Part shown: positions 42,528-58,974 of the stretch, piece by piece
How the letters are laid out: each line of letters begins with the position of its first letter
How positions within the stretch are numbered: position 1 is the stretch's first letter
Source of the DNA: an uncultured archaeon
Lineage (GTDB): Archaea; Asgardarchaeota; Thorarchaeia; Thorarchaeales; Thorarchaeaceae
Direction of reading: 5' to 3'
DNA length: 64,000 nucleotides
NCBI GenBank assembly: GCA_964458565.1
Contig: CAYWJO010000013.1
Location: forward strand, 14,541 to 78,540
Position numbers and translations under genes: made by a program
Notes under the pieces: model-generated
Seen by the model: only the letters and a program-made list of their open reading frames with translations
Database searches by the model: none
Told to the model about the DNA's origin: nothing

Positions 42528-43784
42528 TTACCCAAGTCGTTTGGTTCTAGCATTGCATTCAGCAGCTTTTGTTACGTCTCCCATCTCATCGTACAGCCCT
42601 GCTGCTACTTGCCACGTTCGCTTTGCTTCAGCTTTTCTATCTAGTTTTTCTAGAATCAGAGCTCGATAATAGAGATGATTTGGATTGCCTGGGTCTGTTG
42701 AAAACGCTTTATCAAAATCGTCTAGGGCGTCCTCATATCTCTCGAGTGAAAAATAGAGTCTTCCGCGTCGGTGAGCTACCTCCGCATTTCCTGGGTCAAG
42801 TGCTAATGCGGTATTGAAGTATTCAAGAGCTGTGTCTTGCTCATTCATGAGGAGCATTACTCCTCCACATTTTACCCATGCTTCAATATTCTCTGGGTCC
42901 GCATTGATTGCTTTGTGATATGCATCAGAAGCTTCCTTGTACGATTTCATTACCCTGTGTGTATCACCTTTTCTAATCCAGAGTACAGGGTCTTCCCCTC
43001 TGAGCGTAACCGCGATTTCAAAATGATTGAGGGCATCAATATACAAGGATGCTTTGTAATAAATGTCCCCAAGCAGTTGATGGGCATAGGGTTGTTCAGA
43101 ATCAATCTGTAATAGTGTTTCCAACGCATGTATTGCCAGATCTTGCTGACCTAGCTTCATGTGAAGTCTTCCAAGTTCCATCATAGCAGGTACGAAACGC
43201 TGATTCACTGAAAGTGAGTTTTGAACCCATGATATCGCTCCTCTAAGGTTACCCTGAGCTTCAAAATAAAGTCCCTTGACAAGAAGCGCTCGTTCATAGT
43301 TTGGTCGAATTCTTAGTGCTTCCTCAACATTTTTCCAACAATTGTCCAGATTTCCAAGTTTTAATTCAGCTCTAGAAAGATATGTTAATGCATCCACATT
43401 ATCAGATTCTATAGCCAATGCACTACCAAAACAAGATATCGCATCCTTCGGCTCTCCCCCTAGCAGGTATGCGAGACCCATGTGAACCCAACCTGCTACT
43501 TGATCACTGTCAAGACCAAGTGTAATCTCGTAGAGTATGATTGAACGACCATAGCTGCTCTCACTCAGGTGGATGTTTGCCAGACGGAGTATCAGCTCAG
43601 GAACTCTTGGATCGTGCTTGAGGACTTCAAGTCCTCTTTGTAGTTCAACCTCTAACTGTTCAAGCTCTCTCCTCTCTCTCGACTTGAGTGTAGCAGGATG
43701 GATGTCTTCAGGACGTATCTCATCCTTAACACCTACCGAATCGAGCTTGGATAAGATTGCTGTCAGGAGTTCCTCTTTCTCCAT
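42528..43784 (-). CDS. TPR-repeat protein (about 10 TPRs)
   Basis: Canonical 34-aa repeats such as LWIRKGD....KSY.EA..AY.KAI..DP.N. Confidence 0.9.
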   Translation of the reverse strand: MEKEELLTAILSKLDSVGVKDEIRPEDIHPATLKSRERRELEQLEVELQRGLEVLKHDPRVPELILRLANIHLSESSYGRSIILYEITLGLDSDQVAGWVHMGLAYLLGGEPKDAISCFGSALAIESDNVDALTYLSRAELKLGNLDNCWKNVEEALRIRPNYERALLVKGLYFEAQGNLRGAISWVQNSLSVNQRFVPAMMELGRLHMKLGQQDLAIHALETLLQIDSEQPYAHQLLGDIYYKASLYIDALNHFEIAVTLRGEDPVLWIRKGDTHRVMKSYKEASDAYHKAINADPENIEAWVKCGGVMLLMNEQDTALEYFNTALALDPGNAEVAHRRGRLYFSLERYEDALDDFDKAFSTDPGNPNHLYYRALILEKLDRKAEAKRTWQVAAGLYDEMGDVTKAAECNARTKRLG

Positions 43785-43882
43785 CTTACTCTAAACCATT
43801 GTATTGTTAGAAAAAAGTCCTCATTTTCTCTTAAGAATATTAGCGAAGGGGGATTTTACGGCAGGTTCACTGGATAATCCCC

Positions 43883-57785: not shown

Positions 57786-57798
57786 GATAATTACCTCA

Positions 57799-58974
57799 TT
57801 AACCCAATGTAGGTTTCTTCGAGAAGATGAATGTTGCAGCAAGCATTGCTAAGACTGTGAACCCTAACAGTTTCAGAATACCTCCAAACGCATCAATGAG
57901 CGTCAACCCTTTGAATGCTGTAGCTATAAGCAGGTCCAGCCCTTGATTCATTGGAAGGATTTCGTCTAATGCGCCAACGTCGATGAAAAACCCAGCAAAT
58001 ATGAGTGTTCCAAAAAGAACAAAGAGGAACATCTGATTTGCTTGAAGTCTTGTTGATGAAACTGCTGATATTAGAATTCCTGTTGATGAGCCAGTTAGAG
58101 ATGTCAGACTCATCACGATAATCAATGATTCGAATCCGGTGTTGAGATTGAGATCGAATGCTATGACCCAGAGTGAAACAAGTAGCAAAGACTGAAAGAA
58201 TCCTATAATCAGATACGCCATGACCTTGGCAAAAATAACCTCAAGTCGATTTGTTGGGGTTAAGAGCATTCTTCTAAGCGGAGTGTCGCCAACAATAGAT
58301 TGGGCTGATGTCATTGCTATTCCAAGATAGCTTGAAAATATTACAATAAACCCTCCAAAAACACTCTCAATATACCCTCCCTCTGGGGTGAACTCTATTT
58401 GGATTCCCGGGAAGATTTCAGACCGGATCCATAGATGTGATAACCGAAACGTGATTACTGCTCCCTGAACTATTCCCTGAACTGAGCTTTGTTCTAACAT
58501 AGCAGTTGAATCAACATGTACCTCTATGTACGTGGGTTCATTCTCGGTAAGATTTGCTTCAAATCCATCAGGGATGATCACATATCCTATTATTCGTGCA
58601 TCATACAGATCTTGAAATGCATCTTCTGAACTATTATACCGAATTAGCTCATCCGCAAAATCTTCCATAAAGGCAGTTAAATTCTCAGATAGATCTTCTC
58701 CATCAAATGTTCTGGTCGTATCGAGGTCTATCACACCAATTGCATTGCCGCCTGTTTCATTCCCCCCACCTCCAATACTGCTCATATCACCTCCTCCTCC
58801 AAGAGATAGCCCTCCCAAATCACTCTCTTGTGTAACGAAATATAGAAGTCCGATAAGGGCTGCAGGTAAAAGGAATATCAGAAAAAGTGCTACCTTGTCT
58901 TTTACAATAAGACGTAGCTCTTTTGCTACCATATTTATAATCCGCCTGCTGGGCCTTGTCACTACTTCCGCCAT
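57799..58974 (-). CDS. ABC-2 type permease
   Basis: KEL....DK, one TM, an extracellular domain (VIDLD, IIPDGF), L.RMLLTP..R.E...AK and five further TMs. Confidence 0.9.
   Translation of the reverse strand: MAEVVTRPSRRIINMVAKELRLIVKDKVALFLIFLLPAALIGLLYFVTQESDLGGLSLGGGGDMSSIGGGGNETGGNAIGVIDLDTTRTFDGEDLSENLTAFMEDFADELIRYNSSEDAFQDLYDARIIGYVIIPDGFEANLTENEPTYIEVHVDSTAMLEQSSVQGIVQGAVITFRLSHLWIRSEIFPGIQIEFTPEGGYIESVFGGFIVIFSSYLGIAMTSAQSIVGDTPLRRMLLTPTNRLEVIFAKVMAYLIIGFFQSLLLVSLWVIAFDLNLNTGFESLIIVMSLTSLTGSSTGILISAVSSTRLQANQMFLFVLFGTLIFAGFFIDVGALDEILPMNQGLDLLIATAFKGLTLIDAFGGILKLLGFTVLAMLAATFIFSKKPTLG

Follow-up and report, generated by a model that had tools for sequence, protein, structure and literature searches.

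Six open reading frames (ORFs) are arranged in tandem on the minus strand at positions 42528-58974 of a 64,000-nucleotide (nt) window, the whole stretch of DNA analysed, from a member of the Thorarchaeota (Asgard archaea), and the question raised by this locus is whether they encode a single machine and, if so, what such a machine would do at the cell surface. In their order along that strand, the products are an ATP-binding cassette (ABC) permease, a first ATPase (ATPase 1), a large protein combining a subtilase (S8) domain with a GIFT domain (the subtilase-GIFT protein), a second ATPase (ATPase 2), a giant protein with calcium-binding repeats, and a TPR protein. A first-pass annotation had proposed from the sequence that the cluster was a candidate undescribed machine, ATP-driven, which would assemble, move or release the giant protein as an adhesin or else transmit signals. 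The present analysis gives good support to one conserved Asgard membrane system, with an ABC-2 core composed of two different competent ATPases, one permease and an accessory protein resembling GldG of Flavobacterium. As to its function, the reading we prefer, with a probability of roughly 0.4, is that a non-protein surface component is exported or handed over by a GldA/F/G-like ABC-2 complex, in which a pseudoenzyme shaped like the site-1 protease would be one of the subunits. The literature searches agreed with the word "undescribed": no paper was found on the operon, on Asgard GIFT proteins, or on the structure or mechanism of GldG.

Conservation and composition of the transporter core

The subtilase-GIFT orthologue was found at full length in every same-family genome of the initial search (24/24). 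The gene order permease, ATPase 1, subtilase-GIFT, ATPase 2, giant gene was kept in nine long loci (eight from same-family genomes and one from a genome of the same order), followed by the TPR gene wherever the stretch reached that far, and eleven short loci contained ATPase 1, subtilase-GIFT, ATPase 2 and the start of the giant gene, giving a total of 20 Thorarchaeia genomes in which the order was kept. Operon conservation extended to other families of the phylum as far as the core is concerned, which was present with a full-length subtilase-GIFT protein in eight families in all.

Profiles of the subtilase-GIFT protein and of the N-terminal extension of ATPase 1 were searched in a phylum-wide sample of 301 Asgard genomes, among which related genomes are not independent observations. 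Strong matches to both profiles were obtained in families f1 (72/76 genomes), f2 (1/1), f7 (5/5), f12 (17/19), f19 (6/6), f24 (6/7) and f30 (1/1), as well as in three genomes of g39, one genus among the 68 genomes sampled from f9. Weak partial matches to both were the only ones found in f21 (3/3), neither profile matched strongly in f5 (0/28), f22 (0/21), f14 (0/11) or f27 (0/11), and no further family of the sample gave a strong match to either of them. The subtilase-GIFT profile alone gave weak partial matches, in the GIFT region, in f4, f16, f18, f29 and one further f9 genome. The pattern is clear, with about eight families carrying both markers and many carrying neither.

The core system is single-copy in nearly every genome bearing it, and its genes are usually adjacent; its holders include Thorarchaeia, a Lokiarchaeia family and Freyarchaeum. 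The gene order of f12 is that of Thorarchaeia minus the giant gene, while in Freyarchaeum (f19) ATPase 1, permease and ATPase 2 follow one another and are divergent from the subtilase-GIFT gene. Two permeases, ATPase 1 and the subtilase-GIFT gene lie in this order in f24 (including Ca. Harpocratesius repetitus) and in f9 g39, with ATPase 2 upstream wherever the stretch reached that far. The subtilase-GIFT gene of f7 and f30 is unlinked, and a set of ATPase 1, permease and ATPase 2 lies elsewhere in the same genome. Moreover, the f24 subtilase-GIFT protein was matched over its GIFT and tail region by a protein whose name refers to Hodarchaeales (E 6e-68). The giant and TPR genes were found linked to the core only in the two Thorarchaeia families: the core is the transporter plus the dead subtilase-GIFT protein, and the giant and TPR genes are a later addition in Thorarchaeia. 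Since these two genes are linked only there, and the core co-occurs without the giant gene elsewhere, the adhesin is not the purpose of the machine, and the first-pass annotation has to be revised in this respect.

The permease matched the Pfam families ABC2_membrane_3 (PF12698; 94.2 bits, cut-off 31.6) and ABC2_membrane (PF01061; 50.6 bits, cut-off 26.9) and, on these matches, the transporter is assigned to the ABC-2 type. Its hydropathy profile predicted six transmembrane (TM) segments with an outward loop of ~155 amino acids (aa) between TM1 and TM2 and a Gly-rich stretch at aa 52-77, and its orthologues in the same operon position were 41-73% identical. Both ATPases matched ABC_tran (95.7 bits for ATPase 1 and 91.7 bits for ATPase 2) and the drrA model TIGR01188 (179 bits, below the cut-off, and 183.7 bits, respectively), and orthologues of ATPase 2 were 54-82% identical. 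As initially described, one permease is accompanied by two distinct ATPases: Walker A, Q-loop, LSGG signature, the D-E of Walker B and H-loop were intact in both across 12 lineages, and both ATP sites look functional judging from these motifs. Two ATPases and one permease are the usual state of the system; two Lokiarchaeia-type families have two permeases instead.

The extension of ATPase 1 matched the Pfam family Regulator_TrmB (32.7 bits), and its AlphaFold2 (AF2) model (pLDDT 76.5) consisted of two tandem alpha+beta units. Unit 1 was aligned by VIA-align to TrmB structures with Z 15.1 (3qph_A; root-mean-square deviation, rmsd, 2.0 A over 93 aa) and Z 14.7 (2f5t_X), the next unrelated fold reached Z 6.5, and the Foldseek match to TrmB had E 4e-6. 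It is well supported by these models that ATPase 1 carries, on the cytoplasmic side, two domains like the C-terminal sugar-binding subdomain of TrmB, and these units may bind a ligand. The extension was present in the orthologue alignment of all core-bearing families. Its profile recovered only 40 clusters among 1.84 billion representative proteins, whose named members were all Asgard (Thorarchaeota, Freyarchaeum, Sigynarchaeota and 'Promethearchaeota'), and a look-up in the ESM Atlas returned sub-threshold viral matches only.

The subtilase-GIFT protein, the giant protein and the locus

When aligned to Tk-SP, a Thermococcus protease, the window protein showed Ala at the position of the nucleophile Ser and Asp at that of the oxyanion Asn, with the catalytic Asp and His retained. 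Catalytic residues were then surveyed in 26 orthologues from eight Asgard families. The nucleophile position was occupied by A, S, T, V, L, D or G, being mostly replaced, and the change of the oxyanion Asn to Asp was invariant; the catalytic His gave way to other residues in several lineages (Pro or Arg in two Thorarchaeia, Arg in the Lokiarchaeia-type families), and the catalytic Asp was lost in two. On the evidence of these residues the protease is dead in every lineage sampled, an old pseudoenzyme family rather than a case of recent decay, and the label of pseudo-subtilase given to it on first inspection is upheld. Annotations of public copies go no further than 'S8 family serine peptidase'. 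Searched against the PDB, the profile of the family S8 domain matched Tk-SP with 237 bits and subtilisins with 131-164 bits; a specific relationship of this domain to the site-1 protease (MBTPS1/S1P) was not supported, given that S1P was outside the best 60 PDB matches. A subtilase propeptide (I9) was also considered for aa 38-150, a segment that to us may resemble one, and rejected, with no Pfam match even at E 5.

The same genome encodes an S8-GIFT paralogue of 969 aa (L032:4754-7663, plus strand, contig C3) in which the catalytic D and H, the oxyanion N and the S are intact. This paralogue has DUF4350/ABC_transp_aux matches, resembles the eukaryotic site-1 protease in size and layout and has no adjoining ABC genes, and similar ORFs of ~970-1,050 aa were found in most same-family genomes. 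An active surface protease with this layout was probably the ancestor of the dead form. Two f12 genomes encode, in addition, a further protein of ~1,575-1,600 aa with a split Peptidase_S8 match (L020:1036-5760 and L030:1196-5995, both plus strand), located a few kb from the core on the opposite strand; the two copies are 41% identical.

The remaining domains were characterized on an AF2 model of aa 500-1479, built on an alignment of 19 orthologues (mean pLDDT 71). From the N-terminal side, the model consisted of a super-sandwich and a further beta region, then a Gly-rich linker without order, a domain with a Rossmann-like fold and an Ig-like sandwich, and finally the TM segment and two long cytoplasmic helices. 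The super-sandwich was similar to the N-terminal domains of GH15, GH94 and GH116 glycoside hydrolases/phosphorylases (Z 18-20.6 over ~230 aa, rmsd ~3). For the GIFT domain, the Pfam score of the window protein was marginal (IFT52_GIFT, 29.3 bits against a cut-off of 27.2), the family profile led to GIFT structures of IFT52 (5fms_A with E 9.8e-11, and also 5fmr and 8bd7), the structural alignment to IFT52 gave Z 21.8 (rmsd 2.2 A, 190 aa, 20% identity), and one orthologue (G030) passed the Pfam cut-offs of ABC_transp_aux (PF09822) and DUF4350. The GIFT domain proposed from the sequence is confirmed. Other ectoenzyme modules of the same genome are also fused to GIFT-like domains (L033:1351-5735 and L034:3025-9926, on contigs C2 and C59), namely GIFT with PHP (790 aa), a Zn-phospholipase C with GIFT (655 aa) and GIFT with PKD (947 aa), the last one adjoining a 1,288-aa FG-GAP protein.

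Both the subtilase-GIFT and the giant protein have a hydrophobic N-terminus and a single C-terminal TM segment followed by a basic patch, as expected for the two single-pass proteins with large ectodomains that had been described. Folded cytoplasmic tails had been proposed for both of them. In the subtilase-GIFT protein the tail comprises an Arg-rich patch, an IPE-L/V-D motif, two helices and a small conserved C-terminus (GGV end), a pattern common to all eight full-length families, and a helical hairpin was modelled at moderate confidence; for the giant protein, what was established is the strong conservation of the tail sequence.

The giant protein has a stalk with a 23-aa repeat period, 24% Asp and 75 DxDxD motifs. 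Its orthologues (n = 9) were colinear (2,196-2,268 aa), with identities to the window copy of 35% in the head, 61% in the stalk and 64% in the tail; across 20 genomes identity went down to 44%. The tail reached a mean column identity of 72% and is present as a single copy in the source genome. A variable head, a stalk of near-fixed length and a conserved tail make up a receptor-like design. No significant Pfam or PDB sequence match was found for the tail, which was related (E 6e-10) to a domain within a cytoplasmic 756-aa PCI/UFL1-like protein of Lokiarchaeia, and a cytoplasmic protein-binding role fits this relationship. The Lokiarchaeia protein, encoded in Ca. Harpocratesius repetitus (L039:796-3066, minus strand, and also L040), has a zinc ribbon and PCI-type winged helices and matches E3_UFM1_ligase and, weakly, DDRGK. 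The giant protein is rich in N-x-S/T sequons, with a count of 41, and the ectodomain of the subtilase-GIFT protein has 26. The TPR protein is cytoplasmic, matched TPR_2 (135 bits) and other TPR families of Pfam, and had orthologues of 28-52% identity in the same position of six loci. Pfam matches to BBS2, BBS7 and TTC21 were rejected as evidence of ciliary homologues and read as generic propeller or TPR similarity.

The coordinates of these features are given in the table below, with start codons chosen where the orthologue alignments favoured them. The described layout of five tightly joined genes followed by the TPR gene agreed with the junctions: with the preferred starts, 13 nt separate permease and ATPase 1, 7 nt separate ATPase 1 and the subtilase-GIFT gene (or an 11-nt overlap joins them), 1 nt separates the latter from ATPase 2 (or a 14-nt overlap), ATPase 2 and the giant gene overlap by 4 nt, and the TPR gene follows after 98 nt.

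Features of the six-gene cluster (window positions; aa, amino acids of the product)
Feature	Position	Strand	Remarks
Permease ORF	57799-58974	minus	391 aa
ATPase 1 ORF	56103-57842	minus	likely ATG 57785, backed by orthologue alignment; product ~560 aa
ATPase 1, N-terminal extension	57018-57785	minus	aa 20-275 of ORF, ~255 aa; two tandem alpha+beta units
ATPase 1, nucleotide-binding domain and DrrA-like C-terminal domain	56103-57017	minus	ABC_tran, TIGR01188
Subtilase-GIFT ORF	51674-56113	minus	likely ATG 56095; product ~1,473 aa
Subtilase (S8) domain, predicted catalytically dead, with Gly-rich insertion	54554-55693	minus	Peptidase_S8, 127 bits
Beta super-sandwich	53822-54616	minus	aa ~500-764; AF2 model and VIA-align
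Second beta-rich region	53072-53794	minus	aa ~774-1014; last part aligns to P-like subdomain of site-1 protease
GIFT domain	52331-52861	minus	aa ~1084-1261; disordered Gly-rich linker (aa 1018-1080) ahead
Ig-like beta-sandwich (aa 1263-1363), TM (aa ~1380-1405), Arg-rich patch, two-helix tail	51677-52327	minus	AF2 model
ATPase 2 ORF	50686-51687	minus	~328 aa from ATG (51672)
ATPase 2, nucleotide-binding domain and DrrA-like C-terminal domain, without extension	50686-51672	minus	ABC_tran, TIGR01188
Giant-protein ORF	43883-50689	minus	2,268 aa
Signal peptide and FG-GAP-like beta-propeller head	49490-50689	minus	aa 1-400, propeller ~40-400; Beta-prop_CGLA 44 bits, BBS2_Mid 29 bits
TSP3-type Ca-binding repeat stalk	44360-49489	minus	~1,700 aa; TSP3_bac 50.9 bits
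TM (aa 2125-2143), basic patch and ~115-aa cytoplasmic tail domain	43886-44317	minus	hydropathy
TPR-protein ORF	42528-43784	minus	418 aa

A 7-bp inverted repeat was found directly after the stop codon of the giant gene (43876-43882 pairing with 43849-43855), with a run of six T at 43811-43816, ~33 nt past it, and an AT-rich stretch leading from there to the TPR start; transcription possibly terminates in part after the giant gene, with a separate promoter for the TPR gene. Three extracytoplasmic low-complexity linkers rich in Gly (G-G-x-G-D-L-G-G-like) lie in the permease loop (58744-58821), inside the S8 domain (54860-55030) and ahead of the GIFT domain (52874-53062), the last one being modelled as disordered (pLDDT 23-34). 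The cluster is bordered by two plus-strand genes. An 812-aa protein without Pfam match (59123-61561) is divergent from the start of the operon, and a 1,101-aa protein carrying a GNAT acetyltransferase domain at its N-terminus (39200-42505) is encoded convergently to the TPR gene. The subtilase-GIFT gene of f7 and f19 has two constant neighbours, coding for an orthologous SNAP-like TPR protein (275-332 aa, convergent) and for an orthologous protein of ~1,040-1,100 aa (L021:4958-9465, L022:7823-12426, L031:2425-9222 and L025:8402-13536); the larger one has an MIT domain in f7. The 1,101-aa GNAT protein of the window was rejected as a counterpart of these MIT proteins (~1,050-1,100 aa), to which it is unrelated.

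Proposed function and rival explanations

According to the export reading, the two ATPases would form a heterodimer on a permease dimer, with the subtilase-GIFT protein as a GldG-like accessory subunit. A small cytoplasmic ligand, probably a sugar or a sugar derivative, would gate ATP hydrolysis through the TrmB-like domains, and hydrolysis would power a process in which a surface building block other than protein, probably linked to a glycan or a lipid, is exported or extracted. On the outside, the subtilase/GIFT ectodomain, itself non-catalytic, would be the platform that receives and holds this component, and the giant stalk protein would be a co-expressed client or scaffold of the surface layer, not cargo. 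Characterised ABC-2 systems are exporters; export of a glycan or lipid component is favoured for this reason and because three parts of the system have carbohydrate-related folds, which provide independent hints (the TrmB sugar-subdomain fold, the GH15/GH94-type super-sandwich and the OST48/Wbp1-like arrangement of GIFT, sandwich and TM). The giant protein is not taken as cargo because it has a Sec-type N-terminus and was not found beside the core outside Thorarchaeia. More generally, the earlier remark that the ABC module is probably not simply the exporter of the two large proteins was sound, considering the ABC-2 type of the transporter, the Sec-type N-termini of both proteins and the existence of a core free of the giant gene.

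Several observations weigh against export. GldG-type ABC-2 systems are widespread, and we know of no function for them. The permease stoichiometry on which the heterodimer arrangement is drawn is inferred. The comparison of the ATPase 1 extension with the sugar-contact residues of TrmB yielded no phmmer alignment and a weak profile match. Eight GIFT-like matches were found in the source genome, fused to different ectoenzymes, and GIFT may be a generic surface-mounting module; given how common it is there, a GIFT domain alone is no sign of an ABC partner, a role that falls to synteny and co-occurrence. Furthermore, the subtilase-GIFT gene repeatedly has TPR proteins as neighbours (f1, f2, f7 and f19), joined in f7 and f19 by a protein with an MIT domain, and one f12 genome (G035) encodes a 174-aa Ras-family small GTPase (L020:7848-8372, minus strand; Pfam Ras 163 bits) directly after ATPase 2, at the place where Thorarchaeia have the giant gene. 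Taken with the conserved tails, the TPR, MIT and GTPase neighbours fit signalling or anchoring at least as naturally as an exporter.

These neighbours also speak for the strongest competitor, a mechanotransmission or signalling device comparable to FtsEX-EnvC or MacB, which we consider doubtful. Such a device would transport nothing, and ATP would be spent on moving the dead-protease/GIFT ectodomain, whose retained binding groove would grip and release the giant stalk in Thorarchaeia or other surface proteins elsewhere; alternatively, surface contacts would be relayed inward via the conserved tails to the TPR protein and other cytoplasmic partners. A long-lived pseudoenzyme as accessory protein is what EnvC is for FtsEX, conservation of the two-helix tail and C-terminus spans the eight full-length families, and the layout of the giant protein is that of a receptor, with a head at 35% identity over a stalk and tail at 61-64%. 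However, the permease belongs to the ABC-2 type (type V fold family) with no MacB or FtsX periplasmic domain detected, characterised members of that type export, and the TPR genes of the different families are not demonstrably orthologous.

A more far-reaching version, which we rate as improbable, combines an ATP-powered adhesion and signalling device with an evolutionary claim. The dead-protease/GIFT receptor and, in Thorarchaeia, also the integrin-like stalk of fixed length would act as contact sensors reporting to TPR, MIT and small-GTPase partners, and the S8-GIFT family would be the source of eukaryotic membrane GIFT proteins, the Asgard stock of active ~970-aa and dead ABC-linked forms having given rise to the site-1 protease and perhaps to OST48.

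The lesser rivals are less likely, in falling order a glycosylation module, chance neighbours, and adhesin export or maturation. For the first of them the odds are low: an ABC-2 transporter would flip or export a lipid-linked oligosaccharide that the OST48-like part presents so that surface proteins, among them the giant protein, can be N-glycosylated. The likeness in structure to OST48/Wbp1 across GIFT, beta-sandwich and TM, the sequons of the giant protein and of the subtilase-GIFT ectodomain, and the sugar-type sensor fold on ATPase 1 are all in keeping with this idea, but no AglB/STT3, glycosyltransferase or oligosaccharyltransferase (OST) gene was found in or beside the cluster in the loci inspected, no cluster protein matched the Pfam OST48 family at E <= 0.01, the domain orientation of OST48 differs (rmsd 13-15 A), and Asgard homologues of WBP1 have been reported only in Heimdallarchaeia (PMC10307638).

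It is quite unlikely that the genes are chance neighbours, i.e. an ordinary drug, ion or lipid efflux ABC-2 pump beside unrelated surface proteins. The closeness of the ATPases to the generic DrrA subfamily and the distance of the subtilase-GIFT gene from the ABC genes in f7 and f30 would be explained in this way. Against it stand the identical family-level pattern of two independent markers (strong matches, 301 genomes), their adjacency, which recurs under three different gene orders in five families or more, the start and stop codons that overlap or nearly abut, and the rarity of the extended ATPase family, found only in the 40 clusters whose named members are all Asgard. Finally, a system dedicated to exporting and processing the giant adhesin, on the model of RTX adhesins that are secreted by a type I system and matured by a protease, was suggested by the giant Ca-repeat gene directly after an ABC ATPase (4-nt overlap) and by the subtilase-like gene in the operon, and is rejected as hardly credible, in view of a protease dead in all lineages, a giant protein with an N-terminal Sec signal peptide and a C-terminal TM anchor, an ABC-2 transporter rather than a type I secretion ABC, and a core present in six families without an adjoining giant gene.

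Whatever the function, the unusual parts of the system, a ligand-sensor-like domain on an ATPase and a pseudo-protease accessory, could give a handle on the whole GldG-type class. The giant stalk is probably the tallest structure on the Thorarchaeia cell surface, and a target for reading Asgard cryo-tomograms. In addition, the modelled accessory protein, with a layout common to the site-1 protease and OST48 and a GIFT domain closest to that of IFT52, may bear on the origin of eukaryotic membrane and trafficking modules.

Comparison with known systems

Among the more distant parallels, type I secretion of RTX adhesins differs in two respects, the permease of the Asgard system being of the ABC-2 type and the giant protein bearing both a Sec-type N-terminus and a TM anchor. 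The giant protein shares an FG-GAP-type propeller, TSP3 repeats and a membrane anchor with integrin alpha and with TSP3-repeat surface proteins such as CglD of Myxococcus, and integrin-repeat proteins had already been noted in Asgard genomes (PMC9258230). Its identification as a CglD equivalog was rejected (323 bits against a cut-off of 400, with matches confined to the TSP3 repeats); in contrast to CglD and integrin alpha, the Asgard stalk of ~1,700 aa has a near-fixed length, and the sole relative found for its tail domain is the Lokiarchaeia one. The extension of ATPase 1 has in common with TrmB sensors of Thermococcales the fold of the C-terminal sugar-binding subdomain, but lacks matches to the DNA-binding domain and to the N-terminal sugar subdomain, and is tandem and fused to an ABC ATPase. 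FtsEX-EnvC and MacB offer a possible working analogy, with an ABC ATPase coupled to an extracytoplasmic non-catalytic partner; no FtsX or MacB (periplasmic) domain was detected with Pfam, and the permease fold family differs.

Three eukaryotic proteins resemble parts of the subtilase-GIFT protein. The N-terminal GIFT domain of IFT52 was the best single-domain match, both by sequence profile and by structure. IFT52 is cytoplasmic and acts in the IFT-B complex, whereas the Asgard GIFT domain is extracytoplasmic, lying between a signal or anchor sequence and the TM segment, and no other IFT52 region was matched in the subtilase-GIFT protein by Pfam or profile. OST48/Wbp1 likewise consists of GIFT, beta-sandwich and a single C-terminal TM segment, and OST48 was the top Foldseek match (6s7t_G, E 2.9e-10, 408/410 columns). 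VIA-align over GIFT, sandwich and TM gave Z 17.6-17.9 for 287-325 of 410 residues, at the large rmsd and differing orientation mentioned above, and the Asgard protein has, unlike OST48, a far larger N-terminal half.

The site-1 protease follows the same order of S8, P-like and GIFT domains, single TM segment and basic cytoplasmic tail, and its GIFT subdomain has been described (PMC11231238). Over P-like and GIFT domains, S1P structures (9csd_A and 8uw8_A) were aligned by VIA-align with Z 17.5-17.8 across ~300-305 residues, the span covering model residues 399-763 and S1P residues 478-874, and the GIFT profile matched the S1P sequence with E 0.14. The Asgard protein differs from S1P in the loss of the catalytic Ser and oxyanion Asn, in its extra super-sandwich and Ig-like domain and in its link to an ABC transporter. 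Its modelled layout is S1P-like, and common descent with S1P is not implied by the layout.

The parallel with GldA/GldF/GldG of Flavobacterium, which had been drawn at the outset, proved apt at the level of architecture. This system and the generic bacterial ABC-2/ABC_transp_aux operons, known as 'ABC-type uncharacterized transport system', likewise combine an ABC-2 permease, an ATPase and a membrane-anchored protein with a GIFT ectodomain. Membership in the GldA/F/G equivalogs was rejected on scores under the cut-offs: the GldA model (TIGR03522) gave 127 and 104 bits against a cut-off of 402.6, and the GldF and GldG models gave no match at E <= 0.01 to the permease or to the subtilase-GIFT protein. 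The Asgard system departs from GldA/F/G in having two different ATPases, one of them with tandem TrmB-like domains, and in an archaeal host with neither an outer membrane nor a type IX secretion system. Its auxiliary protein (~1,470 aa) departs from GldG in carrying a dead subtilase, a super-sandwich and a conserved cytoplasmic tail. GldA/GldF/GldG, together with these bacterial operons, is the closest known system, by a likeness of architecture rather than by membership.

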